Origin: a virus
DNA length: 16,989 nt
UHGV virus genome: UHGV-0048692
Strand: one strand, 5' to 3'
Shown here: piece by piece, positions 1 to 13,068 of the stretch
Position numbering within the stretch: the first letter of the stretch is position 1
Layout: every line of letters begins with the position of its first letter
Notes under the pieces: generated by a model
Seen by the model: only the letters and a program-made list of their open reading frames with translations
Database searches by the model: none
Told to the model about the DNA's origin: nothing
Made by a program: the position numbers and the translations under genes

Positions 1-1
1 G

Positions 2-106
2 CAGCACCTGGCACGGCTGGGACGGAAGTCGCTGTCGTTCTCAAAATCGGTGGAGCTGCATGACAAAGTCATCGGGCATTATCTGAACATAAAACACTAT
101 CAATAA
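2..106 (+). CDS. 3' end of an upstream gene truncated by the window edge (...[34 protein letters not shown])
   Basis: Frame 2 is open from the window start to a TAA at 104-106. It is in the same frame as the next ORF. Confidence 0.3.
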
Positions 107-133
107 GTTGGAGTCATTACCCAAATTTTAGGT

Positions 134-772
134 TTGTCAGCCATTCCTTTAGCCGTTGGCGGTGCTACAGTTTTAGAGGTTCTCAAGAAGCTTAACGGGC
201 GTAAGATCGACATAGTCGAGAAAGCTAACGGTAGTGACAAAGTTAAGCTGAAAGTCGATGGTGAAGAGATTGTTTGCTCTGAAGATGTCGAAAAAATCGT
301 TAATGCCCCAGAGATTCGTAAGGCTGTTGACGCGTTTGTCAGACAGCCTCTGTTACAAGATGGTATCGACAATTTTGTGGTAAAAAAATCGCGCACCTCT
401 AAGAAAGAAATCCTCAAAATTCATAAAGATGAGGCAGAAGAGTTTAAGTCGCCAAAAGTTCTCTTTGAAACCAAAGAAGAAGTTGACGAATTTGAAACAA
501 CCGTGACATTCGTTTCGGCGCATACTGACAAAAAAAGTGGCTGGCGTGTTGAGTTTGGCGGTGAAAAGCGCAATGTCAGAATGGAAGATAATGAGTTCAT
601 CAAGCTTGTTACTGGACCAGACGCCCCCAAAATTTTTGGCGAATTGTTTGCTGTGAAGATGAAGAAAATTGTGAAAGATTCCGGTGGCCAGGTAGACGAA
701 AAGTTATCGATCATCAAAGTGGGTCGACACTTTGCCGCCAAAGATAGAAAAATAAAACCTGATGCGGATTAA
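134..772 (+). CDS. Hypothetical charged (K/E/D-rich) soluble protein, 212 aa; cargo gene
   Basis: Long ORF in AT-rich region with a TTG start at 134. No in-frame ATG until residue 150 and no well-spaced SD. Stop overlaps the next gene's start context (TAAAAATG). Confidence 0.5.
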   Translation: MSAIPLAVGGATVLEVLKKLNGRKIDIVEKANGSDKVKLKVDGEEIVCSEDVEKIVNAPEIRKAVDAFVRQPLLQDGIDNFVVKKSRTSKKEILKIHKDEAEEFKSPKVLFETKEEVDEFETTVTFVSAHTDKKSGWRVEFGGEKRNVRMEDNEFIKLVTGPDAPKIFGELFAVKMKKIVKDSGGQVDEKLSIIKVGRHFAAKDRKIKPDAD

Positions 773-774
773 AA

Positions 775-1038
775 ATGTCTATAGATATTAGTGTGTTAGG
801 ATGGTTGGGGCTGCTTGTTGCAGCTCCAGCTATATTTATAGGTGCTAGAGTGGCTATACGTAGCCTGCTCGATCGAGTTATTGTCGAAACAAAAGTTTCT
901 ATCACTTATACTGATGCAAACAAAAATGTCTATAAAACAAATATTTATATAAACAATGATGATGAGTTAATAAAGCTCATCGATGATATAGCAGAGAAAA
1001 ATAAGCGTGAGAGGAAGGAGTCAGCCTCTCATGCCTGA
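775..1038 (+). CDS. Small membrane protein, 87 aa (N-terminal TM helix, charged C-terminal tail)
   Basis: ATG 3 nt after the upstream stop (translational coupling). Hydrophobic segment VLGWLGLLVAAPAIFIGARVAI. Confidence 0.5.
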   Translation: MSIDISVLGWLGLLVAAPAIFIGARVAIRSLLDRVIVETKVSITYTDANKNVYKTNIYINNDDELIKLIDDIAEKNKRERKESASHA

Positions 1039-1447
1039 ACAAAAGAAAACAAGCGGTAAAGCAGTCGGTGTTACAGGTGGCGGCGGTGTAGGCCTTTTCC
1101 TAATAAAGCTGGCTAGCTTCATTACAGATCCAACATGGAAAGACCTTTACATTGCTTCAATACCGATGGTGTCAATTCTTTTAAGCGAAGTTTTTACTTT
1201 TGCATGGACGATTTATGCTGTTGATCCGCAAGAAATCAAACTGAAAAGGCGGTTGAAGGCTCTGAAGAAGCAAGCCGAAGCAGTTTTAAATGCACCATCG
1301 TCCCCTGTTTCTCCAGAAATGCGAGAGAAAGCGCAGGCTCGTTACGACGTGATCTGTGGAATTGAAATGGGAATTTACCCCCTCTCAATTGTAAATACGC
1401 TAGATGGAAAAGTATCCCCCACAGCGCAAACGCCGGACGTTAAATAG
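1031..1447 (+). CDS. Small membrane protein, about 138 aa (Gly-rich segment GVTGGGGVG, one TM helix, basic coiled-coil-like tail)
   Basis: ATG at 1031 preceded by GGAAGGAG (1013-1020). The ORF track's earlier start at 1007 is GTG without an SD. Overlaps the previous gene by 8 nt. Confidence 0.5.
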   Translation: MPEQKKTSGKAVGVTGGGGVGLFLIKLASFITDPTWKDLYIASIPMVSILLSEVFTFAWTIYAVDPQEIKLKRRLKALKKQAEAVLNAPSSPVSPEMREKAQARYDVICGIEMGIYPLSIVNTLDGKVSPTAQTPDVK

Positions 1448-1510
1448 CAGTTTCTACTTTGCATGACTATGCTGCATGAAATCGCATGATCGTTTGAGGA
1501 TCGTTTTTGC

Positions 1511-1538
1511 AAAAGCCCGCCAGAACTGGCGGGCTTTT
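1511..1538. terminator. Bidirectional rho-independent terminator (AAAA-GCCCGCC-loop-GGCGGGC-TTTT)
   Basis: Perfect 7-bp GC stem flanked by an A-tract and a T-tract, about 65 nt downstream of the + strand operon. Confidence 0.6.
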
Positions 1539-1583
1539 GCGTAGAGCATGCATCTGCATGAAAACCACTACATAAAGCGGGCA

Positions 1584-1602
1584 GGCGTGGCGGGGATACG
1601 AG
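1584..1602. other. cos-like site (putative cohesive-end region of the P2-like phage)
   Basis: GGCGTGGCGGGGATACGAG followed by CGCGCGC resembles the P2/P4 cohesive end as I recall it (GGCGAGGCGGGGAAAGCAC then TGCGCGC), about 14 of 19 identical. It lies in the correct orientation relative to the portal gene. Confidence 0.4.
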
Positions 1603-1689
1603 CGCGCGCAATAGGGTTATGTACAATAAATTTTTGACGATCTTCGAGTGTTATTAGCTTGAGGCTGTCAGGGAAAATGAATACAATAA

Positions 1690-1721
1690 GAAGCGCCTAG
1701 CAGAATGTTACTAGGCGCTTC
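1690..1721 (-). terminator. Hairpin terminator for the - strand mini-ORF operon
   Basis: Perfect 11-bp inverted repeat GAAGCGCCTAG / CTAGGCGCTTC with a 10-nt loop, followed on the - strand by T-rich TTATTGTATT; 34 nt downstream of the last mini-ORF stop. Confidence 0.45.
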
Positions 1722-1754
1722 GAATATATAACCTGTATGACTTTCTTAACCTAC

Positions 1755-1862
1755 TTATCTTTTTGATTTCTTCTTCGTATCATCGTGATCGAATACTTGG
1801 CGGGTAGGCGGCTTGCTGGGTGGTGGCGGCGGCGGTAAATTAGATTTCTCATTTTTGCTCAT
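1755..1862 (-). CDS. Polyproline mini-protein 3 (35 aa, MSKNEKSNLPPPPPPSKPPTRQVFDHDDTKKKSKR)
   Basis: ATG overlaps the 3' end of mini-ORF 2 by 14 nt. Shares the PPPPPP-x-KPP-T/I-R motif and charged tail with the other two. Confidence 0.35.
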   Translation of the reverse strand: MSKNEKSNLPPPPPPSKPPTRQVFDHDDTKKKSKR

Positions 1863-1983
1863 CTTTATTTTTCCTATTTTTTGGATCATTGCCATAGCTT
1901 TCTCTAACTAACCGAGTGATTGGCGGTTTAGGTGGTGGTGGTGGTGGTGCTTCATTTTTTTTAGGATTTTTGTGTTCGGTCAT
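1849..1983 (-). CDS. Polyproline mini-protein 2 (44 aa, MTEHKNPKKNEAPPPPPPKPPITRLVRESYGNDPKNRKNKDEQK)
   Basis: Internal ATG at 1983 of the 62-aa track ORF, chosen because it aligns with the paralogues. Overlaps mini-ORF 1 by 23 nt. Confidence 0.35.
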   Translation of the reverse strand: MTEHKNPKKNEAPPPPPPKPPITRLVRESYGNDPKNRKNKDEQK

Positions 1984-2098
1984 TTTTATCGTCCTTTCTG
2001 TCTCTTCGTAGTTGCCTTGCTTTTGAATCATCTTCAATAACGATCCTTCTTGCGGGTGGAGTAGGCCGAGGAGGTGGTGGCGGTAACGGTTTGGTCAT
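1961..2098 (-). CDS. Polyproline mini-protein 1 (45 aa, MTKPLPPPPPRPTPPARRIVIEDDSKARQLRRDRKDDKNDRTQKS)
   Basis: ATG overlaps the stop of the 216-aa gene (TAATG). AGGAG lies 8 nt upstream of the ATG. Below the 60-aa cutoff of the ORF track. Confidence 0.4.
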   Translation of the reverse strand: MTKPLPPPPPRPTPPARRIVIEDDSKARQLRRDRKDDKNDRTQKS

Positions 2099-2748
2099 TA
2101 AGTTCTCCTGACATTTTCAATAGGTATTATCAAATAGTTAGGGGCGTTATTTTTCCGCGGTGATGCTGCATCTAAATCAGCTAAAAGAAATATGACTACT
2201 GCTGCGATAATTGGAATCCATGACCAGACAAGATACTTTGTTGACTCAAATAGTTTACTGGAACGTTCCTCATTGATATTACTGTTCCAGCTAGCACACT
2301 CTCTGATTTCTTGATGAATAAACTCCCAAAGTTTATTATCAGGGTTATAACTTTCATCGTATGTAAGTCCATTGTCATCGCAATATTTTTTATATTTCAC
2401 TTCGTAACTAATCAGATCTATGTGATAATCATGCAATGCTTTAGGTGCAGGGCAATACTTAAATTCATTTCCCCATATGACTTGTTTCAACAGAATTGAT
2501 GATACAAGAACTAAGCCAAATGAAATTGCGGTACATAAAAATACTAGGCAAGCTAGCCTTGGGTGGGATTCATAAGATGTGTTTTTGGCGAGATAAGTGA
2601 GTATAGTTGCGGTAATGACAACTAATCCGAATTCGGCTTGAGCGCGAGTATGTATCTTGTCTTTATTCTCAATTTCTGAGAAATAAAGTTTTTCGTAAAA
2701 TTCTAATGCTTTATCCTTTTTCATTTTTAGATTCAGTGTGATGTCCAT
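2098..2748 (-). CDS. Hypothetical integral membrane protein, 216 aa (two predicted TM helices flanking a Cys/Tyr/Asp-rich domain); cargo gene
   Basis: AT-rich ORF directly downstream of the Q terminator. Hydrophobic segments LACLVFLCTAISFGLVLVSSILL and LVWSWIPIIAAVVIFLLADL. No fold recognised. Confidence 0.55.
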   Translation of the reverse strand: MDITLNLKMKKDKALEFYEKLYFSEIENKDKIHTRAQAEFGLVVITATILTYLAKNTSYESHPRLACLVFLCTAISFGLVLVSSILLKQVIWGNEFKYCPAPKALHDYHIDLISYEVKYKKYCDDNGLTYDESYNPDNKLWEFIHQEIRECASWNSNINEERSSKLFESTKYLVWSWIPIIAAVVIFLLADLDAASPRKNNAPNYLIIPIENVRRT

Positions 2749-2770
2749 GTATCAAACATATCACGATAAC

Positions 2771-2798
2771 AAAAAAAGAAAAGCCGCAATTCTGCGGC
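2771..2798 (-). terminator. Rho-independent terminator downstream of portal gene Q
   Basis: On the - strand, GCCGCA-GAAT-TGCGGC followed by TTTTCTTTTTTT, immediately after the Q stop codon. Confidence 0.6.
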
Positions 2799-2808
2799 TG
2801 TTGGGAAG

Positions 2809-3843
2809 CTAATCTAGCGATAATTCGTAATTTGTGAACCCTATCGCGTTTTTATCCAGCCATTTATTAAGCTCCTCAAAGCGTCTCTGAAGCGGAATAA
2901 GTTCATTACGAACGAATACGCGGCTGGCCTTCTCCACATCCCCAAATCCCCCAACATTATTAGGCATAATCCCCATCATCTGCGGTGGCACACGATGCGC
3001 CGCCATCATGTCATCCCGGCTCACGTTCTTGATGTTCAGAAACTCATCCTTCGCCGCGACTTCTGACAGAGGAATGATCTGAAGCCCATCCTTTTTGCCG
3101 TTAGGCGAGTACATAAACAGGTTGCGGAAGTTACCCGGTCCTTTGGCGCTTTTCATCGCATTGCGGAGGTTGTTCACATCCTCCTGGTTCTGCGCGGCAT
3201 CGGTCATGTACATGATGAAGCCTGCATGACTACCGTTAATGTAATACTTCCGGCGGAACAGCGTGGCGGACTCGTTGAGCAAAGCGGATGGGATGGCAGA
3301 AAGATAGCCGGGCAGGCCGTAGATCTCCTGATTAATATCCGGTTCCATCAGATGAAAAATGCTGCCTTTCGTGAACTGATACGGCTGGGTTGTCATACCG
3401 TATTGCACAAACCAGTAGGTATCCAGGTCTAACCCGCGTCGGGTATATTTTGCCAGAGCAGGCTCAAGGGCGATAACTTCACCGAAGCGGTTCGTGCGTT
3501 TCTCCAGATAGGCGTTACCAAATACCAGATAGTCCTGCACAAAACGTGAAAAAGCCTGCTGGCTGAGCAGCGGGTGAGGGATGTAGGTACTGGTCAGTAT
3601 GTTGCATTTCACCGCAATTGGTGAACTGTGATGCACGGCAGCGCGGAAGGTGCGCGCCAGTCCGTCAAAGCTTACTGGCGGCTCATACCAGCGATCTGTC
3701 TGTACGCATTCCACATAGTCCAGCAGTTCTCGGCGGTCCAGAACAGGAACGGGATCGCCGAAGCTGAATGCTTCGGCTGTAGTTTGACTTTTAAGCTGGA
3801 TCTGTTTCGTCGCCGAAGCGCGGTTCTTCTTACTCTTTCCCAT
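2809..3843 (-). CDS. Q: Portal (capsid) protein, P2 gpQ-like, 344 aa
   Basis: Size and position identical to P2 Q. ATG at 3843 overlaps the P stop (ATGA); the track's 3846 start is TTG. Confidence 0.9.
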   Translation of the reverse strand: MGKSKKNRASATKQIQLKSQTTAEAFSFGDPVPVLDRRELLDYVECVQTDRWYEPPVSFDGLARTFRAAVHHSSPIAVKCNILTSTYIPHPLLSQQAFSRFVQDYLVFGNAYLEKRTNRFGEVIALEPALAKYTRRGLDLDTYWFVQYGMTTQPYQFTKGSIFHLMEPDINQEIYGLPGYLSAIPSALLNESATLFRRKYYINGSHAGFIMYMTDAAQNQEDVNNLRNAMKSAKGPGNFRNLFMYSPNGKKDGLQIIPLSEVAAKDEFLNIKNVSRDDMMAAHRVPPQMMGIMPNNVGGFGDVEKASRVFVRNELIPLQRRFEELNKWLDKNAIGFTNYELSLD

Positions 3844-5609
3844 CAAAAAATCTCCACAATATTGCTGGTATTGGCGGACTCGCCCTGCAGCGGTTCGTTA
3901 AACAGTGCGTGCATTGTTGCCCAGGCCAGATCGGCGTGGCTGGCTTCTTCGCTGCGGCTGGCTTCATAGGTCGGGCGGTTGCCGCTGGCGGTGGTGGCGC
4001 GACGGATTGCCATGAATGACTGCGCTATGTCGGTGTGTCCGGCGTCAAACTCCAGACGGCGGTGGCTGATAATGTCGTAGGCCTTGAGTACCAGGGCGTT
4101 TTTAACATTGGGGTTGTAGACAAACTCCCGGACGGCAGGAAAGAACGCTTTCACGTTCTCGTAAACCCCGTGGCCGACCCCAGTTGAGTCGATGCCGATA
4201 TAGGTCACGTTGTACTGTTCGGTCAGTTTTTTGATGGCGTCAGCCTGGGCGCGGAAGTCCATCCCGCGCCACTGGTGACGCTCAAGAATGCGGAACTTAC
4301 CACCCGGCACGGCTGGCGGTGCCACCACTACGCATCCGGCGCTGTCGCCGTTTTGCGTACCTTTTGCCGGGTCATAACCGATCCACACTTCGCGCCAGCC
4401 AAACGGGCGCAGCGCCAGTGCATGAAAGTCGGTCCAGACTTCCCAACTGTCCACCATGCACGCCTGCAGCTCGCTGAGCGGAAACACGGACGCGAGATCG
4501 TCCACAAACTCGCACATCAGCAGGTTCTGGTATTCGTCCGGGCTGTACTCCATGCGCAACTGGTCAAGGTCGAACAGGTTGCAGCCGCCGCGCACCGCAT
4601 CTTCCACGGTGACTATCTGGCGGTATTGCCCGTCTGCGCACAGCAGGCCGGGGGCCAGATTGCTGTGGGACAGGTCGATGTCCACCTTGTCAGCTTTGTT
4701 GCGTCCACGGTTGAACAGCGCACCGGACCAGAACGGATAAGCACTGTGGGTCAGGCTGGATGGCGTGGAAAAATAGGTTTGTCGCCATTTCTTGTGAATA
4801 GCCATCCCGGAAGCCACTTTGCGCAGCTCCTGGAATTTCGGTATCCAGAAATATTCATCCAGATACAGGTTGCCGTGATAACTCTGGGCCGTGCGGGCAT
4901 TGGTGCCGAGGAAGTAAAGCGTGGCCCCATTAGGAAGCACCATCGGATCGCCTTTTAGCTCCACCTCGACTTCTTTGGCGAAGTCGATGATGTATTGTTT
5001 AAAGACGTGGGCCTGTGCCTTACTGGCGGAAAGGAAAATCTGGTTACGTCCGGTAAGCAGGGCGTCAATCAGGGCTTCACGGGCAAAGTAAAAGGTCGCG
5101 CCGATCTGGCGTGACTTCAGCAGGTTGCGGATGCGGTTGGTTTTTCCGGCTTCCCACCAGTGGCGCTGGTAGTTGAACATGGAGGAATGGAAGATTTCTT
5201 CCAGCTTCTCAATCTGCTCATCGGTGAAAACATTCTTTTCCGGCTGACGGCGTGGGCCTTTGTTGCGGTTGGCGACGTTAGGGTTTAAGTCGGCTTCGTT
5301 GCCGCCATTGTTAAACTTGCCGATCCGCGCGTGGCGCTCCGACTGGCGCGCCAGCAGGTCAATCTCTTTGAAATCTTTCCCTTCTTTGTGCTCCTTCATA
5401 ATGAGCTGGCAGTAGCGTGCGGCGGTGGTGAGCTGCATCTGATCCAGCGGCCCATAGTCACCCCACTTGTCGCGTTTTTTCCAGCTGTGAACGGTTGCAA
5501 CTTTCTCGCCCAGCATTTCAGCAATGCGGGCTACGCGGTATCCCTGAAAGTACAGCAGCATGGCCTGCCGACGGGGATCGAGATCTGCGGGTGTCAGTGT
5601 GGTGTTCAT
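3843..5609 (-). CDS. P: Terminase large (ATPase) subunit, P2 gpP-like, 588 aa
   Basis: Size and position as P2 P. Divergent from O across a short intergenic region, as in P2. Confidence 0.9.
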   Translation of the reverse strand: MNTTLTPADLDPRRQAMLLYFQGYRVARIAEMLGEKVATVHSWKKRDKWGDYGPLDQMQLTTAARYCQLIMKEHKEGKDFKEIDLLARQSERHARIGKFNNGGNEADLNPNVANRNKGPRRQPEKNVFTDEQIEKLEEIFHSSMFNYQRHWWEAGKTNRIRNLLKSRQIGATFYFAREALIDALLTGRNQIFLSASKAQAHVFKQYIIDFAKEVEVELKGDPMVLPNGATLYFLGTNARTAQSYHGNLYLDEYFWIPKFQELRKVASGMAIHKKWRQTYFSTPSSLTHSAYPFWSGALFNRGRNKADKVDIDLSHSNLAPGLLCADGQYRQIVTVEDAVRGGCNLFDLDQLRMEYSPDEYQNLLMCEFVDDLASVFPLSELQACMVDSWEVWTDFHALALRPFGWREVWIGYDPAKGTQNGDSAGCVVVAPPAVPGGKFRILERHQWRGMDFRAQADAIKKLTEQYNVTYIGIDSTGVGHGVYENVKAFFPAVREFVYNPNVKNALVLKAYDIISHRRLEFDAGHTDIAQSFMAIRRATTASGNRPTYEASRSEEASHADLAWATMHALFNEPLQGESANTSNIVEIF

Positions 5610-5655
5610 GGCACAAACCTACAGCCTTGAATGAAGGCTTTCCCCGCCTGCGGTT

Positions 5656-5673
5656 TGTGTGGTTGTCGGTACA
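5656..5673. promoter_or_regulatory. TGT-N12-ACA dyad (Ogr/Delta-type late-activator site) in the divergent P/O promoter region
   Basis: TGTgtggttgtcggtACA, centred about 55 nt upstream of a plausible O transcription start. P2 late promoters carry this dyad near -55. Confidence 0.4.
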
Positions 5674-5751
5674 AATACCGCGCATTGTTTCACTGCCCCC
5701 ATCACCGCAACCATAAGGCTCCAGTAAGTTTTTTCTAACGGAGCACGGCTC

Positions 5752-6585
5752 ATGACAGTGAAAGCAAAGCGTTTTCGCATCGGGGTGGAAGGTGCCACCA
5801 CCGACGGACGCGAAATCCAGCGTGAATGGCTGGAACAGATGGCAGCCAGCTACAACCCGGCGGTGTATACCGCGCTGATTAACCTTGAGCACATCAAGTC
5901 TTATCTGCCGGACAGCACCTTTAACCGCTACGGCAAGGTGACGGCGCTATTTGCTGAAGAAATCACGGAAGGTCCGCTGGCAGGCAAGATGGCGCTGTAT
6001 GCCGACGTTGAGCCAACGGAATCCCTGGTGGAACTGGTGAAAAAAGGCCAGAAATTATTCACCTCTATGGAAGTCAGCCCGAAGTTTGCTGATACGGGCA
6101 AAGCCTACCTGGTCGGCCTGGCTGCCACTGATGACCCTGCCAGTCTGGGCACTGAAATGCTGACATTCAGCGCCAGTGCAGCCCATAACCCGCTGGCAAA
6201 CCGCAAGCAGAATCCCGCCAATCTTTTTACCGCTGCAGAGGAAACGGTGATCGAACTGGAAGAAATCCAGGATGACAAACCGTCCCTGTTTGCCCGTGTC
6301 ACGGCGCTGTTCACCAAAAAAGAGCAGTCCGATGACGCCCGGTTCTCTGATGTGCATAAGGCCGTGGAACTGGTCGCCACTGAGCAGCAGAACCTGAGTG
6401 CGCGCACCGAAAAATCCCTGTCTGAGCAGGAAGAACGCCTGTCTGAGCTGGAGACTGCCCTGCAGGCACAGCAGACCGCCTTTAACGAACTGGTGGACAA
6501 GCTGAGCCAAGAAGACAGCCGCCAGGACTACCGCCAGCGTGCAACAGGTGGTAACGCCCCCGCTGACACTCTGACCAATTGCTGA
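5752..6585 (+). CDS. O: Capsid scaffolding protein, P2 gpO-like, 277 aa
   Basis: Position and size (P2 O about 284 aa). Acidic coiled-coil C-terminal part typical of scaffolds. Confidence 0.85.
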   Translation: MTVKAKRFRIGVEGATTDGREIQREWLEQMAASYNPAVYTALINLEHIKSYLPDSTFNRYGKVTALFAEEITEGPLAGKMALYADVEPTESLVELVKKGQKLFTSMEVSPKFADTGKAYLVGLAATDDPASLGTEMLTFSASAAHNPLANRKQNPANLFTAAEETVIELEEIQDDKPSLFARVTALFTKKEQSDDARFSDVHKAVELVATEQQNLSARTEKSLSEQEERLSELETALQAQQTAFNELVDKLSQEDSRQDYRQRATGGNAPADTLTNC

Positions 6586-6601
6586 TGGAGCACAAAACCT
6601 G

Positions 6602-7660
6602 ATGAAGAAGAATACCCGCTTTGCTTTTAACGCTTACCTGCAGCAACTGGCGCGTCTGAACGGTGTGGCAGTTGAAGAACTGTCCAGCAAGTTCACCGTA
6701 GAGCCGTCCGTGCAGCAGACATTGGAAGACCAGATCCAGCAGTCCGCCGCTTTCCTGACGCTGATTAACGTCACGCCAGTGACTGAGCAGTCCGGTCAGC
6801 TGCTGGGGTTGGGAGTTGGCAGCACCATTGCCGGAACCACTGATACCACCGCGAAAGAGCGTGAACCTATCGATCCGACGCTGATGGTCGATGTGGAATA
6901 TAAATGCGAGCAGACCAACTTTGACACGGTACTGACCTACGCGAAGCTGGACCTGTGGGCGAAGTTTCAGGATTTTCAGGTGCGTATCCGTGACGCCATC
7001 GTGAAACGTCAGGCACTGGACCGCATCATGATCGGCTTTAACGGCGTGAAGCGTGCGAAAACCTCCAACCGTAGCGAAAACCCGTTACTGCAGGATGTGA
7101 ATAAAGGCTGGCTGCAGAAAATCCGTGAGGATGCACCGGATCACGTCATGGGCAGCACCACCACGGGCGGTGAAACCACACCGGGTGCGGTGAAAGTCGG
7201 GAAAGGTGGCGAATATGCCAACCTGGACGCCGTGGTGATAGATGCCGTTAATGAGCTTATCGACGTGGTCTATCAGGACGATGACGATCTGGTGGTGATT
7301 TGCGGTCGTGAACTGCTGTCTGACAAGTATTTCCCGCTGGTCAACAAAGAGCAGGAAAACAGTGAAAAACTGGCTGCCGATATGATCATCAGTCAGAAAC
7401 GCATGGGTGGCCTGCAGGCCGTGCGTGCGCCGTTCTTCCCGCCGAATGCGCTGCTGATCACCCGTCTGGATAACCTGTCCATCTACTGGCAGGAAGACAC
7501 CCGCCGCCGTTCAGTTATCGACAACCCGAAACGTGACCGGATTGAAAACTTTGAATCCGTTAACGAAGCCTATGTGGTTGAGGACTACCGCTGCGCCGCA
7601 CTGGTGGAAAACATCCAGATTGGTGATTTCAGCGCCGCCGCAGCCGAAACCGGAGCGTAA
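6602..7660 (+). CDS. N: Major capsid protein, P2 gpN-like, 352 aa
   Basis: Position after O and size (P2 N about 357 aa). Confidence 0.9.
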   Translation: MKKNTRFAFNAYLQQLARLNGVAVEELSSKFTVEPSVQQTLEDQIQQSAAFLTLINVTPVTEQSGQLLGLGVGSTIAGTTDTTAKEREPIDPTLMVDVEYKCEQTNFDTVLTYAKLDLWAKFQDFQVRIRDAIVKRQALDRIMIGFNGVKRAKTSNRSENPLLQDVNKGWLQKIREDAPDHVMGSTTTGGETTPGAVKVGKGGEYANLDAVVIDAVNELIDVVYQDDDDLVVICGRELLSDKYFPLVNKEQENSEKLAADMIISQKRMGGLQAVRAPFFPPNALLITRLDNLSIYWQEDTRRRSVIDNPKRDRIENFESVNEAYVVEDYRCAALVENIQIGDFSAAAAETGA

Positions 7661-7663
7661 TCC

Positions 7664-8314
7664 ATGAGCCTGAGTCCCGCACGGCAGCATCGCCTGCGCG
7701 TTCAGGCTGAACAGGCCGCCCGCGAGGGCGGCAGTGTTCGCCACGCATCGGGCTATGACCTGATGCTGCTGCAACTGGCGGAAGACCGCCGCCGTCTCAA
7801 GGGCGTTCAGTCCACGGTCAAAAAAGCGGAAATCAAGGTGGAGCTGCTGCCGAAGTACGCCGCCTGGGCGGAGGGCGTCCTGGCTGCCGGAGGCGCTCAA
7901 CAGGATGACGTGCTGATGTACGTGATGCTGTGGCGCATTGATGCCGGAGATTATGCCGGGGCGCTGGAGATCGGGCGTCATGCCCTGCGTCATGGCTGGG
8001 TGATGCCGCTGGGTAACCGCAACGTGCAGACCGTGCTGGCAGAGGAAATGGCAGATGCAGCGCAGAGCGCAATGCTTGCCGCCACCGACTTTGATGCCGA
8101 TCTGTTGCTGCAGACGCTGGAGCTGACAGACGGTCTGGATATGCCGGACCAGTCACGGGCGCGTCTGCATAAAGCGATTGGCGCTGTCCTGAGTGAAAGC
8201 AATCCGGCTTCCGCCCTTAATCATCTCAACCATGCGTTACAGCTCGATCCCCGCTGTGGCGTGAAAAAAGACAAACAGCAGCTGGAGCGCAGACTGCGCA
8301 ATGACAGCCGCTGA
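7664..8314 (+). CDS. M: Terminase small (endonuclease) subunit, P2 gpM-like, 216 aa
   Basis: Position after N. Arg-rich N-terminus. Confidence 0.8.
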   Translation: MSLSPARQHRLRVQAEQAAREGGSVRHASGYDLMLLQLAEDRRRLKGVQSTVKKAEIKVELLPKYAAWAEGVLAAGGAQQDDVLMYVMLWRIDAGDYAGALEIGRHALRHGWVMPLGNRNVQTVLAEEMADAAQSAMLAATDFDADLLLQTLELTDGLDMPDQSRARLHKAIGAVLSESNPASALNHLNHALQLDPRCGVKKDKQQLERRLRNDSR

Positions 8315-8409
8315 CAGAACGTGCCCCCGCGCACGGGCGGCACGGGGTGGCGAAAGGCACTGCCACATCAAAACCCCGTCCACCGCCCTCTATTTCAGGA
8401 GAAAGCAGC

Positions 8410-8874
8410 ATGAAGTTTGTTGCGCCAGAACAGGCACCGGAACAGGCGGAAATCATCAGAAATACGCCGTTCTGGCCTGATGTGGACCTGTCGGAGTTTC
8501 GCTGTGTCATGCGCACTGACGGCACGGTGACGCAGCCGCGTTTAAAGCAGGTTGCGCTGTCGGCAATTTCGGAGGTCAACGCAGAGCTGTATGAGTTTCG
8601 CAGACGTCAGCAGATGCTGGGATATGCCTCGCTGGCAGAGGTTCCGGCGGAACAGCTGGACGGCAAAAGTGAGCGCATTCATCACTATTTCAACGCGGTT
8701 TACTGCTGGGCACGCGCCATGCTCAACGAGCGTTATCAGGACTATGACGCCACGGCATCCGGTGTGAAGCGGGGCGAGGAACTGGCGGAAGCAAGCGGTG
8801 ATTTGTGGCGTGACGCCCGCTGGGCCATCAGCCGGGTGCAGGATGCGCCGCACTGCACAGTGGAGCTTATCTGA
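8410..8874 (+). CDS. L: Head completion/stabilisation protein, P2 gpL-like, 154 aa
   Basis: ATG at 8410 preceded by AGGAGAAA. The track's longer ORF from 8347 lacks an SD. ATGA overlap with X. Confidence 0.75.
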   Translation: MKFVAPEQAPEQAEIIRNTPFWPDVDLSEFRCVMRTDGTVTQPRLKQVALSAISEVNAELYEFRRRQQMLGYASLAEVPAEQLDGKSERIHHYFNAVYCWARAMLNERYQDYDATASGVKRGEELAEASGDLWRDARWAISRVQDAPHCTVELI

Positions 8875-9077
8875 TGAAAGTGCGTGCGCATCAGTATGAC
8901 ACGGTGGACGCGCTTTGCTGGCGTCATTACGGGCGCACGCAGGGTGTCACGGAGCAGGTACTGAAGGCAAATCCGGGGCTTGCCGAATACGGCCCCTTTT
9001 TACCTCACGGGCTGCAGGTGGAGCTGCCGGACATTCCGACAACCACCACCGTGCAGACCGTCCAGCTATGGGACTGA
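8874..9077 (+). CDS. X: Tail protein X, 67 aa
   Basis: Exactly the size of P2 gpX, in the P2 position. Confidence 0.75.
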   Translation: MKVRAHQYDTVDALCWRHYGRTQGVTEQVLKANPGLAEYGPFLPHGLQVELPDIPTTTTVQTVQLWD

Positions 9078-9080
9078 ATT

Positions 9081-9296
9081 ATGACGCTTGAGCGAATCAG
9101 CGCCTTTATCACGTATTGCATCGCCGTCGTGCTGGCCTGGCTGGGCGATTTGTCCATCAAGGATGCCTCAACGCTGGGCGGCCTGATGATTGGTGTGCTG
9201 ATGCTGGCTATCAACTGGTACTACAAACACAAAGCCTACCAGCTTCTGCGCGACGGGCAGATCACGCGGGAGGACTATGAATCCATCAATCGTTAA
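9081..9296 (+). CDS. Holin, probably pinholin-like (71 aa, two TM helices)
   Basis: Two hydrophobic helices and a charged C-terminus. Immediately upstream of, and overlapping, the endolysin gene. Confidence 0.6.
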   Translation: MTLERISAFITYCIAVVLAWLGDLSIKDASTLGGLMIGVLMLAINWYYKHKAYQLLRDGQITREDYESINR

Positions 9297-9789
9297 ACGC
9301 TGCCTTGTCGGGGCCGTGCTGGCTATTGCTGCCACGCTGCCGGGTTTTCAGCAGCTTCACACCTCCGTGGAGGGGCTGAAACTGATTGCTGATTACGAAG
9401 GCTGTCGTCTGCAGCCGTATCAGTGTAGCGCGGGTGTCTGGACCGACGGCATTGGTAATACGTCGGGCGTCATTCCCGGCAAAACCATTACGGAGCGACA
9501 GGCAGCAGAAGGGCTGATCTCCAACGTGCTGCGTGTGGAGCGGGCGCTGGAAAGGTGTGTGAAGCAACAGCCGCCGCAGAAGGTGTATGACGCTGCGGTG
9601 TCGTTTGCCTTCAACGTGGGAACGGGCAATGCCTGCAGTTCCACACTGGTGAAATTACTCAATCAGCGGCGCTGGGCGGATGCGTGCCGACAGTTGCCGC
9701 GCTGGGTTTATGTGAAAGGTGTTTTTAATCAGGGGCTGGATAACCGCCGTGCGCGGGAGATGGCCTGGTGCTTACAGGGAGCAAACTGA
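9277..9789 (+). CDS. K: Endolysin, T4-lysozyme-like (GH24) with an N-terminal signal-anchor-release (SAR) domain, 170 aa
   Basis: Gly/Ala-rich weakly hydrophobic N-terminus (LVGAVLAIAATLPGF) followed by an EGLKL...D...T catalytic motif like T4 lysozyme and P21 R. Confidence 0.8.
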   Translation: MNPSIVKRCLVGAVLAIAATLPGFQQLHTSVEGLKLIADYEGCRLQPYQCSAGVWTDGIGNTSGVIPGKTITERQAAEGLISNVLRVERALERCVKQQPPQKVYDAAVSFAFNVGTGNACSSTLVKLLNQRRWADACRQLPRWVYVKGVFNQGLDNRRAREMAWCLQGAN

Positions 9790-9790
9790 A

Positions 9791-10168
9791 ATGAAAAAGA
9801 AAGTAATCAGCGGGCTGTTTCTGATGTTATGGATGGCGCTGTTGATCGCAGCAATGGTGTATCCACAGGGGATTTTTCCGGTACTGGCAGCGTCCGGTGT
9901 CTGGGTAGCCTGTCTGCTGACATGGGCGGTAATTCCGGTAGCACTGGCTGCGTTAATTAAGAACGGCCCGCTCTGGCAGGAGTTGAGGGCATCTTTGCTA
10001 AAGACCATTACCCGAAAAGAAAACGTATTTATCAGCTGGGTGATGCGATTGCTGATTGTCGTAAGTTTCGCCTGGACGGGGTGGGCTATTACCCTGGTCT
10101 TTTATCTGCTGACCGTTATTGCCTTCTGGATGATCCGTAATCAGATTGCGCAACAGGTAGCAGCATGA
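9791..10168 (+). CDS. lysA: LysA-like polytopic membrane protein, 125 aa
   Basis: ATG 2 nt after the endolysin stop, with GGGAG upstream. Several TM helices. Position as P2 lysA. Confidence 0.6.
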   Translation: MKKKVISGLFLMLWMALLIAAMVYPQGIFPVLAASGVWVACLLTWAVIPVALAALIKNGPLWQELRASLLKTITRKENVFISWVMRLLIVVSFAWTGWAITLVFYLLTVIAFWMIRNQIAQQVAA

Positions 10169-10593
10169 ACCGGTTGCTGCTGGTTGTGCTGGCGTTATTA
10201 CTGGCGGCGCTGGGCTGGCAGACGTGGCGGCTGGCTGATGCCAGCCAGACCATCAGCACGCAGGCAGACGAGCTTCGGAGCAAAAGCCAGGCACTGGCAA
10301 AGAGCAACAGCCAGCTTATCAGCCTGTCCATTCTGACTGAAACCAATAACCGGGAGCAGGCGCGGCTCTATGCCGAAGCAGAACAGACCAGTGTACTGCT
10401 GAGACAACGACAACACCGGATTGAGGAACTGAAACGTGAGAACGAGGATTTACGCCGCTGGGCTGATACTCCTTTGCCTGCTGACATTATCCGGCTGCGG
10501 GAACGCCCCACACTCACCGGAGGTGCAGCTTACCGTCAGTGGTTGTCCGCGAGTGACGCCGTGTCGGCTGGGGCAGGCAGCGCCGCGCACTAA
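10165..10593 (+). CDS. lysB: Inner-membrane spanin (Rz-like), P2 LysB-like, 142 aa
   Basis: N-terminal TM helix followed by a long coiled-coil region. ATGA overlap with lysA. Confidence 0.7.
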   Translation: MNRLLLVVLALLLAALGWQTWRLADASQTISTQADELRSKSQALAKSNSQLISLSILTETNNREQARLYAEAEQTSVLLRQRQHRIEELKRENEDLRRWADTPLPADIIRLRERPTLTGGAAYRQWLSASDAVSAGAGSAAH

Positions 10594-10726
10594 CGGTGAC
10601 CTGAACGCGTTGCTGGATGAAACGGAGGCCGCCTGGGCGGTCTGTGCAGACAAAGTGGACATGATTATTGCGTGTCAGGAGCGAAACAGTGAACAAACCA
10701 CAATCCCTGCGCCACGCCCTCAATAA
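10436..10726 (+). CDS. lysC: Outer-membrane lipoprotein spanin (Rz1-like), P2 LysC-like, 96 aa
   Basis: Starts in the +1 frame inside lysB and runs past its end. Lipobox LTLSGC with Cys; Pro-rich mature part. Confidence 0.7.
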   Translation: MRTRIYAAGLILLCLLTLSGCGNAPHSPEVQLTVSGCPRVTPCRLGQAAPRTNGDLNALLDETEAAWAVCADKVDMIIACQERNSEQTTIPAPRPQ

Positions 10727-11120
10727 AGCGGTGCCTTATGTCCGCAATAACCCGGACAAACTGCATCTGTTTGTGGATAACGGTTCGCTGGTTGCCACGG
10801 GGGCCAGCTCCATGTCATGGGAGTACCGCTATACCCTGAACGTGGTGATAGAGGATTTCAGCGGCGACCAGAATCTGCTGATGGCCCCGGTTTTACTGTG
10901 GCTTCGGGATAACCAGCCCGATGCCATCAATAACCCGGCGTTACGGGAAAAGCTATTCACCTTTGATGTGGATATTTTGCGCAACGATGTCTGTGATATC
11001 AGCCTTAATCTGCAACTGACGGAACGTGTGCTGGTCAGCACTGACGGCAGTGTGTCGAGCGTTGAAGCTGTAGCAGAACCCGATGAACCTGAAGAAATGT
11101 GGACGGTGAAACGTGGCTGA
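10689..11120 (+). CDS. R: Tail completion protein, P2 gpR-like (about 143 aa from GTG 10689)
   Basis: GTG at 10689 with AGGAG 7 nt upstream. The track's ORF begins at TTG 10668. Position after lysC. Confidence 0.7.
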   Translation: MNKPQSLRHALNKAVPYVRNNPDKLHLFVDNGSLVATGASSMSWEYRYTLNVVIEDFSGDQNLLMAPVLLWLRDNQPDAINNPALREKLFTFDVDILRNDVCDISLNLQLTERVLVSTDGSVSSVEAVAEPDEPEEMWTVKRG

Positions 11121-11559
11121 ACTGCAGAAGGTGGACGACTGGCTGAGTGCCTTGCTGGCGAATCTGGAACCAGTCGCAAGAAGCCGCATGATGCGCCAGC
11201 TGGCGCAGGAACTGCGCCGGACACAGCAGCAGAATATCAGGATGCAGCGCAATCCAGATGGCAGCAGTTATGAGCCGCGCAGGGTAACAGCACGCAGCAA
11301 AAAGGGGCGCATCAAACGTCAGATGTTTACAAAGCTGCGCACCACACAATACCTGAAAACTGCCGCCAGCGCCGACTCTGCCAGCGTGCAGTTTGAAGGC
11401 AAGGTACAGCGCATTGCCCGTGTTCATCACTACGGCTTACGTGATCGCGTCAGCCGCAAAGGACCGGAGGTACGGTACGCAGAGCGGCAGTTGTTGGGGA
11501 GCAACGATGAGTTAGAGGCCATCACTCATGATATTTTACTTCATTGGTTGTCAGGGTGA
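11113..11559 (+). CDS. S: Tail completion protein, P2 gpS-like, 148 aa
   Basis: Position and size (P2 S about 150 aa). Overlaps R by 8 nt. Confidence 0.8.
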   Translation: MAELQKVDDWLSALLANLEPVARSRMMRQLAQELRRTQQQNIRMQRNPDGSSYEPRRVTARSKKGRIKRQMFTKLRTTQYLKTAASADSASVQFEGKVQRIARVHHYGLRDRVSRKGPEVRYAERQLLGSNDELEAITHDILLHWLSG

Positions 11560-11560
11560 G

Positions 11561-12412
11561 TTATATAAAAGGGTTTCTATAATCACTAAAATTCCAGTTG
11601 ATATGATGATCGCTGAATTCTGCTTCTTTTAATATGACTAGGCAGTTTAATCGTTTAAATTGTGAGTAAAAATCCTTTAGTGCAAAACTGATTGTTTTAG
11701 AGCCTCTTTTCATCGGCATGGTTTGGAATTGACCATTGTGAAATAATGCGTTCCTTAAGCTACAGTAAATATCAAGTGAGATGTCATGATGTTTATTGTT
11801 TTGTTGATTTATATTAAACCCATGCTTTTTGAGGTAACGATACATGATTGGCGTAATGTTTGATTTAAAATCATTCTCACGTTCTCGAACTAATGACTCA
11901 AGGCCAGAAAAAAGTAAGTAATATGATACATCAAGATAATTTATTGGATTAGAGAAAACCAATACATTTTTATGAGGTATTGTGGTAAATGGTCGATCTC
12001 TAGCAATGATGATCTTATTTATAGCAAGTTCAATAAAGTAGCGTCTTGAGTTTTTGGAAAAGCAATCTTCAAGAATGATTTCTCCTGAACTTGATAAGTT
12101 AATATTAGGAGTTATAAAGAGAGGGTAATCTATGGGCAAGTCAAATTTATGAGTCTTATTATTTAGTTGGTGTCTGATAAATACTGCTCTCTGTTCTATA
12201 AAACTCAAAATTTTCTCTAGATGAAATATGATATTATCTGTTTCGCTCTTGTCTATGATGTCAAGTTCAAGGAGCGCAGTAAGATATAATTTTTCCTTGT
12301 CTTGTCTATATTTTTTTAATTTAAGAAAACTGGTTTCTATTGGATACATTGTCCCGAATGAAAAGTGAGTTATCTTTGTTAGAGTAAAGCCGTAAATACC
12401 AACAGTAAACAT
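11561..12412 (-). CDS. Hypothetical protein, 283 aa, strongly AT-rich moron on the opposite strand between S and V; possible abortive-infection-type protein
   Basis: Long clean ORF whose composition is clearly foreign to the phage backbone. One R-x4-H motif (RNALFH, residues 220-225, nt 11738-11755). No P2 late gene of this size at this position. Confidence 0.6.
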   Translation of the reverse strand: MFTVGIYGFTLTKITHFSFGTMYPIETSFLKLKKYRQDKEKLYLTALLELDIIDKSETDNIIFHLEKILSFIEQRAVFIRHQLNNKTHKFDLPIDYPLFITPNINLSSSGEIILEDCFSKNSRRYFIELAINKIIIARDRPFTTIPHKNVLVFSNPINYLDVSYYLLFSGLESLVRERENDFKSNITPIMYRYLKKHGFNINQQNNKHHDISLDIYCSLRNALFHNGQFQTMPMKRGSKTISFALKDFYSQFKRLNCLVILKEAEFSDHHINWNFSDYRNPFI

Positions 12413-12489: not shown

Positions 12490-13068
12490 ATGAACGCACA
12501 ATTAACCGAAATCATGCGCCTTATCACCAACCTGATCCGCACAGGGGTAGTCACCGAAGTGGACAGGGAAAACTGGCTTTGCCGGGTGAAAACGGGCGAG
12601 CTTGAAACCAACTGGATCAGCTGGCTGATGCTGCGTGCCGGGAATGCCCGTACATGGTGGCGACCATCGGAAGGTGAGCAGGTGGTGCTGCTGAGTCTGG
12701 GCGGCAATCTGGAAACCGCCTTTGCGCTGCCCGCTGTCTATTCGAATCAGTTCGCACCACCGTCGACGTCGGCGGACGCCTGCGTGACAGAACATCCTGA
12801 CGGTGGCTGGTTTGAATACGAACCCGCCACCGGGCGCTGGTATGTCAGGGGCATCAAATCAATGGTCATTGAGGCTGCTGACAACATCACCATGAAAACC
12901 AGTGAGTTTGTACTGGAGGCTGACCGCACGCGCATTAACAGCGAAGTGGTGATCAATGGTGGCGTTACCCAGGGCGGCGGAGCGATGAGTTCTAACGGGA
13001 TCGTGGTTGATGCGCATCAGCATACTGGCGTCCTGAAAGGCGGCGATACAACCGGAGGCCCGGTATGA
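12490..13068 (+). CDS. V: Baseplate spike/assembly protein, P2 gpV-like, 192 aa
   Basis: N-terminus and Gly-rich C-terminus resemble P2 gpV. Position before W. Confidence 0.85.
   Translation: MNAQLTEIMRLITNLIRTGVVTEVDRENWLCRVKTGELETNWISWLMLRAGNARTWWRPSEGEQVVLLSLGGNLETAFALPAVYSNQFAPPSTSADACVTEHPDGGWFEYEPATGRWYVRGIKSMVIEAADNITMKTSEFVLEADRTRINSEVVINGGVTQGGGAMSSNGIVVDAHQHTGVLKGGDTTGGPV

Follow-up and report, generated by a model that had tools for sequence, protein, structure and literature searches.

An IS1-truncated remnant of a putative gp29-like three-gene defense cassette at the tin/old-equivalent position of a P2-like prophage

The 2022 study of Rousset et al. is said to place the hotspot cargo of P2 (old, tin) between the replication genes and cos/Q, and in 2017 Dedrick et al. 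reportedly described gp29-gp30 of mycobacteriophage MichelleMyBell as a prophage defense system, which goes by the DefenseFinder name MMB_gp29_gp30. The gp29 protein is toxic, gp30 is a putative membrane protein, and their mechanism is not known (PMC11856565); phage Tweety plates 4-5 orders of magnitude less efficiently on a MichelleMyBell lysogen, a defense that is countered by Tweety gene 54 (PMC8549241). With DefenseFinder, gp29-gp30 has reportedly been detected in no group but the Actinobacteria (bioRxiv 10.1101/2023.03.30.534874). A set of defense candidates, the 145 PDC families of PADLOC, comes from genes embedded in BREX, DISARM and type I restriction-modification loci (bioRxiv 10.1101/2024.01.29.577857). 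Here we describe a locus of the viral stretch UHGV-0048692 (16,989 nt, the whole of which is referred to as the window), and read it as the IS1-cut remnant of a gp29-like three-gene defense cassette that would be of the abortive-infection or toxin-antitoxin (TA) type when intact; we put the probability of this reading at roughly 0.6.

The cassette remnant lies at the 5' end of the window on the + strand, and the features of the region are as follows.

1..121, + strand: right end of IS1, with the 3' end of insB, its stop codon TAA at 104-106, and the terminal inverted repeat ending at 121; an IS1A transposase is annotated in a 100% identical record
122..772, + strand: 3' fragment of gene 1 (about codons 82-297), gp29-like/PDC-S42/LAPAL family, from alignment with the intact WP_000764102.1
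775..1038, + strand: gene 2, 87 aa, intact; one N-terminal transmembrane (TM) helix and a conserved cytoplasmic beta/alpha tail
1031..1447, + strand: gene 3, 138 aa, intact; Gly-rich hydrophobic segment, TM helix, basic helix and a conserved motif
1448..1459, + strand: 3' end of the cargo insert, from comparison of an empty slot (prophage L015) with prophage L002 and the window
1509..1540, unstranded: perfect 14-bp GC-rich hairpin GCAAAAGCCCGCCAG-AA-CTGGCGGGCTTTTGC, terminator-like in both directions

Megablast identifies window positions 1-121 as the right end of IS1, and the remaining matches to the locus all begin at 122. Translation of 2-106 gives the C-terminus of InsB, whose stop codon is in frame with the downstream open reading frame (ORF). 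Intact gene 1 (894 nt, 297 aa, WP_000764102.1; L002:7758-8651, where L002 is the prophage of E. coli 13E0767, NZ_CP020107.1) is present in seven other complete E. coli genomes, and its nucleotide identity with the window begins exactly at 122, at approximately codon 82. Because IS1 ends at 121 and homology starts at 122, the 212-aa coding sequence (CDS) that PGAP calls at 134..772 (WP_249941024.1), and that the first-pass annotation took for a complete gene, is a 5'-truncated pseudogene fragment and an annotation artifact; the TTG at 134, its start in the ORF list, is merely the first possible start after the insB stop. The window keeps the 3' 72% of gene 1 (122-772), and what has been lost to IS1 is the promoter region, the start codon, and the first ~81 codons including the conserved Y12 and G62-S63-F64, and with these the entire N-terminal domain of the product. 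The suggestion that the system continues upstream of the window does not hold, as no further genes are involved, and IS1 has replaced no more than the promoter region and first quarter of gene 1. Genes 2 and 3 are 100% identical to their copies in intact cassettes, from which we infer that the IS1 insertion is recent. The copy in the window is very likely non-functional, with genes 2 and 3 probably left as promoterless passengers.

The chromosome of E. coli 22AR0118 is 100% identical to window positions 1-2800 and extends beyond the 5' end (L001, NZ_CM132257.1, 2698-8106). The order there is IS1 - integrase (inverted) - rcdA - ybjJ - ybjI' - IS1 - gene 1 fragment, such that ybjI is split and two inverted IS1 copies flank an inverted block containing the integrase, rcdA, ybjJ and the 5' part of ybjI. 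Between integrase and cassette, the region examined lacks the early part of the prophage (cI to DinI). The arrangement indicates that the 22AR0118 prophage is a remnant and points to IS1-mediated deletion plus inversion. Another decaying cassette is present in Providencia stuartii NCTC11800 (L019, 3959-5552), in which two ORFs cover what was gene 1, and the gene 3 product is without its N-terminus.

The three + strand ORFs are as the first-pass annotation gave them, and so is their tight coupling, with 2 nt between gene 1 and gene 2 and an overlap of 8 nt between gene 2 and gene 3. The gene 3 ORF is 138 aa when counted from its ATG, upstream of which is a strong Shine-Dalgarno sequence (AGGAAGGAG); its longest version opens at a GTG at 1007. 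In a promoter scan, sites are no commoner than expected by chance, and no internal promoter can be claimed for genes 2 and 3. The cassette is AT-richer than the backbone, also as noted before, with a G+C content of 0.417 for 122-1447 against 0.562 for 2809-11500. The strong bidirectional terminator said to close the operon exists as the hairpin at 1509-1540, but it is placed in a conserved backbone spacer (1460-1611), outside the cargo to which it had been assigned. It has a run of T in front and TTTT inside its 3' arm, and a simple consensus terminator scan, which demands at least five T, does not call it. The spacer as a whole folds with a minimum free energy of -63.9 kcal/mol (z -3.2), and an Rfam scan of window 1-3000 gives no match.

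Gene 1 belongs to a family that is present in the hidden Markov model (HMM) libraries of PADLOC, NCBIfam and PHROGs, in contrast to the earlier impression of an unrecognizable protein. The intact protein matches the PDC-S42 HMM PDLC05015, a family proposed by guilt-by-embedding in the preprint of Payne et al. 2024, over its whole length with an E value of 8.8e-44 (residues 5-288 against profile positions 3-293 of 302). It matches the NCBIfam model NF053583, "LAPAL motif-containing putative phage structural protein", with 191.7 bits against a cutoff of 60, and it also matches phrog_3243. The family consensus MDxxxLAPAL corresponds to MDILSFAKSL in intact gene 1 and falls in the region deleted in the window. 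PADLOC models PDC-S42 as a single-gene system; a solo Salmonella member matches at 4.4e-87, and the cassette gene has its two partners in all 36 of the clade loci considered below. No mention of PDC-S42, the 'LAPAL motif', DUF7946 or the WP accessions was found in the literature searched.

The same family includes MichelleMyBell gp29. In the MichelleMyBell genome (KF986246) the 310-aa gp29 is followed by an overlapping gene for the 67-aa, two-TM gp30, and a Vibrio homologue of gene 1 carries the annotation note MMB_gp29_gp30__gp29. The hhalign probability of homology with gp29 is 83.6% for a narrow alignment (A1) and 98.7% for a 145-sequence alignment (A3; E value 1.6e-16 over 268 columns). 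With hmmsearch, the homology between gp29 and the gene 1 family scores 74.7 bits over HMM positions 17-299 of 304, and gp29 itself matches the PDC-S42 HMM at 1.6e-16. Family positions kept in gp29 are G62, S63, F64, P157, L158, W222, D237, F240 and V281. At the level of profile and sequence comparison, gene 1 is thus established as a homologue of MichelleMyBell gp29, end to end in the intact allele; the window copy retains only residues ~82-297 of the gp29-homologous region. A profile search of 1.84 billion representatives yields 3620 clusters (at 50% identity) with E values of 1e-3 or below, and 2228 at 1e-10 or below, with lengths mostly of 280-320 aa among the 150 best listed. The family spans well beyond the Actinobacteria.

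A PDB sequence search with the family profile gives nothing meaningful. An AlphaFold2 model of the gene 1 product, built with a deep alignment, has a pLDDT of 93.2 and a pTM of 0.84. It predicts an N-terminal alpha/beta domain (residues 1-75) that contains the LAPAL helix and a GSF hairpin, a middle alpha/beta domain (~112-190), and a C-terminal five-stranded barrel (198-285) with a helix between strands 3 and 4, which is the topology of an OB fold. The near-invariant W222, D237 and F240 sit in this OB-fold-like barrel. No whole-chain match to the model was found in the PDB, and OB folds are the only structural matches. Residues 80-102 were considered as a TM helix and this was rejected, as the high-confidence model has short helices and coil there and no long helix; that MichelleMyBell gp29 has no stretch above the hydropathy threshold also disfavors it.

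The intact cassette consists of three genes encoding products of 297, 87 and 138 aa, and homologous trios (approximately 290, 83 and 140 aa) are found in a variety of mobile elements. Homologues of gene 1 with 48-97% identity occur across the Enterobacterales, and the trio is found in widely differing settings. In E. coli and Pantoea it is carried by P2-like prophages, in Klebsiella by a prophage in which Imm_superinfect and SSB genes flank it, and in Proteus both by lambdoid prophages, where it comes right behind the gene for a CI-like repressor, and in a tail module of siphovirus type. It also occurs in a Mu-like head module and, beside the integrase, in a PM2-like (Vinavirales) element of Vibrio. 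An HMM scan directly downstream of gene 1 finds the order g1-g2-g3 at 36 of 36 loci of the Enterobacterales/Aeromonas/Vibrio clade, with gene 2 matches at E values of 1e-26 to 1e-37 to an HMM built from 10 sequences of these same 36 loci. Linkage of gene 1 to the two membrane-protein genes is thereby shown to be obligatory in the sampled clade. Homologues of genes 2 and 3 are also present behind a gene 1 relative of only 33% identity, and a profile scan of genome contigs for the gene 1 family returns four loci.

Outside this clade the partners vary, although the sample of other family members is small. In Salmonella a solo gene lies at a prophage end next to hok/gef, and another solo gene is immediately upstream of a Mu-like protease gene; other members are followed by a gene for a 103-aa protein with a C-terminal TM helix or for a 68-aa soluble protein, or are preceded by a translationally coupled XRE-HTH gene. 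Actinobacterial relatives retain a gp30-like two-TM ORF overlapping the 3' end of the gp29-like gene. In this small sample the gp29-like protein is the constant core and the accessory genes are exchangeable. In several diverged phages of the Mu-like kind (viral contigs L062-L068 and L010), a gp29-family gene, either solo or with the trio, again stands immediately 5' of the protease/scaffold gene. This suggests that Mu-like head modules hold a moron hotspot for gp29-family genes, and this position may be the source of the 'structural protein' label of NCBIfam.

Both small products have the predicted membrane character attributed to them by the first-pass annotation. The gene 2 product has one N-terminal hydrophobic (TM) helix and a conserved soluble tail, V(T/S)(I/V)TY ... 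DDIAEK. The gene 3 product has a Gly-rich hydrophobic stretch, AVGVxGGGGxGxFL, one clear TM segment (residues 39-64) and a basic helix; its motifs are IPxxSxxLSExFTF, in the TM helix, and a conserved RYDxIxGIEMGIY. Searches of genes 2 and 3 against Pfam, NCBIfam, PADLOC and PHROGs give nothing significant, gene 2 having a weak match to phrog_36230 (8e-4). A role as holin or spanin was rejected for both: the phage owns a complete lysis cassette, and the three-gene cassette is absent from nearly all related prophages.

The cassette thus resembles gp29-gp30 in its full-length gp29 homologue, its situation as prophage cargo in a variable region, and the small membrane-protein gene or genes behind gene 1. 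It differs in that the overlap in MichelleMyBell is between gp30 and the 3' end of gp29, whereas in the cassette it is between genes 2 and 3. In place of the 67-aa, two-TM gp30 the cassette has an 87-aa protein with one TM helix and a soluble tail and a 138-aa protein with a Gly-rich segment, a TM helix and a basic helix, and it contains no gene of the gp30 kind (67 aa, two TM helices, overlapping the gp29 3' end). The hosts are Proteobacteria rather than Actinobacteria, the copy in the window is truncated, and defense is known for the mycobacterial system only.

The genomic position is the one proposed by the first-pass annotation. In the intact prophage L002 the cassette follows replication endonuclease A, a hypothetical gene and DinI, and precedes the spacer, a second cargo gene and portal Q, and the interval from A/DinI to Q is what we take to be the tin/old-equivalent slot of the P2 map. 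The slot is empty in the related prophage L015, in which the spacer begins 82 bp after DinI, and comparison with L015 sets the limits of the insert from the DinI stop to approximately window position 1459. The cassette is present in 8 of 5426 complete E. coli genomes. The spacer, by which genomes with this type of P2-like prophage were counted, is present in 1275 of the 5426 at 88-95% identity, and also occurs in P2-like phages of Klebsiella, Salmonella (Fels-2) and Yersinia. Because only 8 genomes carry the cassette, compared with ~1275 that have a similar prophage, the cassette is cargo, variable and gained by horizontal transfer, at the tin/old-equivalent hotspot of P2; this upholds the earlier proposal of variable cargo.

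The cassette is like the P2 hotspot cargo in its genomic slot, its presence/absence polymorphism and its low G+C, but it has no homology to Old, an OLD-family ATPase nuclease, or to Tin. Neither of these turned up in the PADLOC scan of the cassette, in agreement with the first reading of the sequence; PDC-S42 is the sole PADLOC match, and Pfam gives nothing informative. The slot also differs from the P2 picture in being two adjacent slots, independently variable, divided by the conserved 150-bp spacer. The spacer may serve only as a terminator, or may be a recombination anchor for cargo exchange. The second slot contains a membrane protein gene in the window and a gene for a DUF262/HEC-06-like protein in L002.

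This second slot, just upstream of portal Q, corresponds to window 1755-2748 (- strand) and encodes a 216-aa protein with about three TM helices that belongs to phrog_36961, for which a function is not assigned. Its gene is translationally coupled (TAATG) to three tandem paralogous micro-ORFs (1961-2098, 1849-2037 and 1755-1895), the products of which each have a PPPPP(P) core and, behind it, a basic tail; only one of the three is annotated by PGAP. The same block is also found in other prophages that do not have the three-gene cassette. Elsewhere in the window, a 283-aa ORF with a G+C of 0.31 lies at 11561-12412 (- strand) between the tail genes S (11113-11559) and V (12490-13068). It has no counterpart in the otherwise matching 22AR0118, relative to which the window has an additional 0.86-kb insert between S and V, and occurs in just 6 of the 5426 complete E. 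coli genomes. Neither Pfam nor PADLOC gives a match, and it has the look of further rare cargo, at a second of the variable sites of P2.

On balance we favor a defense function for the intact cassette, based on the PDC-S42 and gp29 matches. By analogy with gp29-gp30, the intact cassette would be expressed in the lysogen as an abortive-infection or TA-like anti-phage module, in which the gp29-like protein would be both infection sensor and toxic effector, with sensing possibly through the OB-like domain. The part of gp30 would fall to the two membrane proteins, which would restrain or localize the gp29-like protein until infection. In the window, where IS1 has left gene 1 with neither promoter nor start codon and its product without the N-terminal domain, such a system is probably dead. 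The earlier suggestion of anti-phage cargo is plausible for the intact allele, and the copy on which it was based is almost certainly inactive.

Several observations weigh against this reading. In profile comparison neither gene 2 nor gene 3 resembles gp30 (hhalign probability 0.2%). A membrane partner is not universal in the family, certain members of which stand alone or beside genes for non-membrane proteins, and the division of labor proposed here is a guess. PDC-S42 is only a candidate, and no experiment on any proteobacterial family member was found in the literature searched; the toxicity of gp29 and the partner roles are taken from secondary citations. NCBIfam labels the family a 'putative phage structural protein', and its members are repeatedly met right before the protease gene of Mu-like phages. 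For the window copy, read-through from IS1 could leave residual expression of genes 2 and 3.

Three other explanations were considered. The cassette could be a selfish addiction module of the TA type that stabilizes the prophage and has no role against other phages. The reported toxicity of gp29, the overlapping gene for its small partner, and the relative whose gene is preceded by a translationally coupled XRE-HTH gene, an arrangement seen in type II TA loci, all fit this, and the window copy has lost the putative toxin while its putative partners are intact. The MichelleMyBell prophage nevertheless measurably defends against Tweety (PMC8549241), and many TA modules double as abortive-infection systems, so that this explanation overlaps with the one we favor rather than excluding it; we consider it unlikely. 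Superinfection exclusion or lysogenic conversion, in which the membrane proteins block DNA entry or alter the envelope, the soluble protein is accessory, and there is no abortive or toxic step, is likewise improbable. Two conserved small proteins of inner-membrane type would suit it, as would the moron-type positions, including those beside the Imm_superinfect gene in Klebsiella prophages. However, the conserved core is the soluble gp29-like protein, which is also found without a membrane partner, gp29 is reported to be toxic (PMC11856565), and escape from MichelleMyBell defense maps to Tweety gene 54, a counter-defense of obscure mechanism (PMC8549241) that would be in keeping with action after entry.

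A role for gene 1 as a virion structural or morphogenesis accessory protein is very improbable. The name of NF053583 implies it, and members do lie inside head/tail clusters of Mu-like phages and of a Proteus siphovirus-type prophage. Yet the cassette is carried by just 8 of ~1275 otherwise similar P2-like prophages, lies outside the structural operons in P2-like genomes, and accompanies unrelated virion architectures (myovirus, siphovirus and PM2-like); one context is chromosomal and not phage-looking, adjoining an XRE-type HTH gene, and the low G+C is that of other morons. The abortive-infection or TA-like reading can be taken further, although at odds below even. The intact cassette might be an undescribed three-component abortive-infection system of Proteobacteria, in which a cytoplasmic sensor that bears an OB fold, but whose fold as a whole is new, would recognize a nucleic acid or protein of the phage; a membrane complex of the two small proteins would either transmit its action or set it free. 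On this view the gp29 core would define a cross-phylum defense superfamily, very large at 3600 or more clusters (50% identity), whose partners are interchangeable.

The core family is already known, having been validated in a mycobacteriophage, listed as a candidate in PADLOC and named in NCBIfam. What appear to be new to the literature searched are the equivalence of PDC-S42 and gp29, the breadth of the family outside the Actinobacteria, and the finding that at the P2 hotspot the gene forms part of a fixed trio with two new membrane partners. For annotation, DefenseFinder may miss the cassette as a system if it requires both gp29 and gp30, and PADLOC models a single gene. The practical message for the window is that the locus is an IS1-inactivated remnant, and it is the intact E. 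coli allele, in strains such as 13E0767, that offers a genetically tractable version for studying how this family acts.

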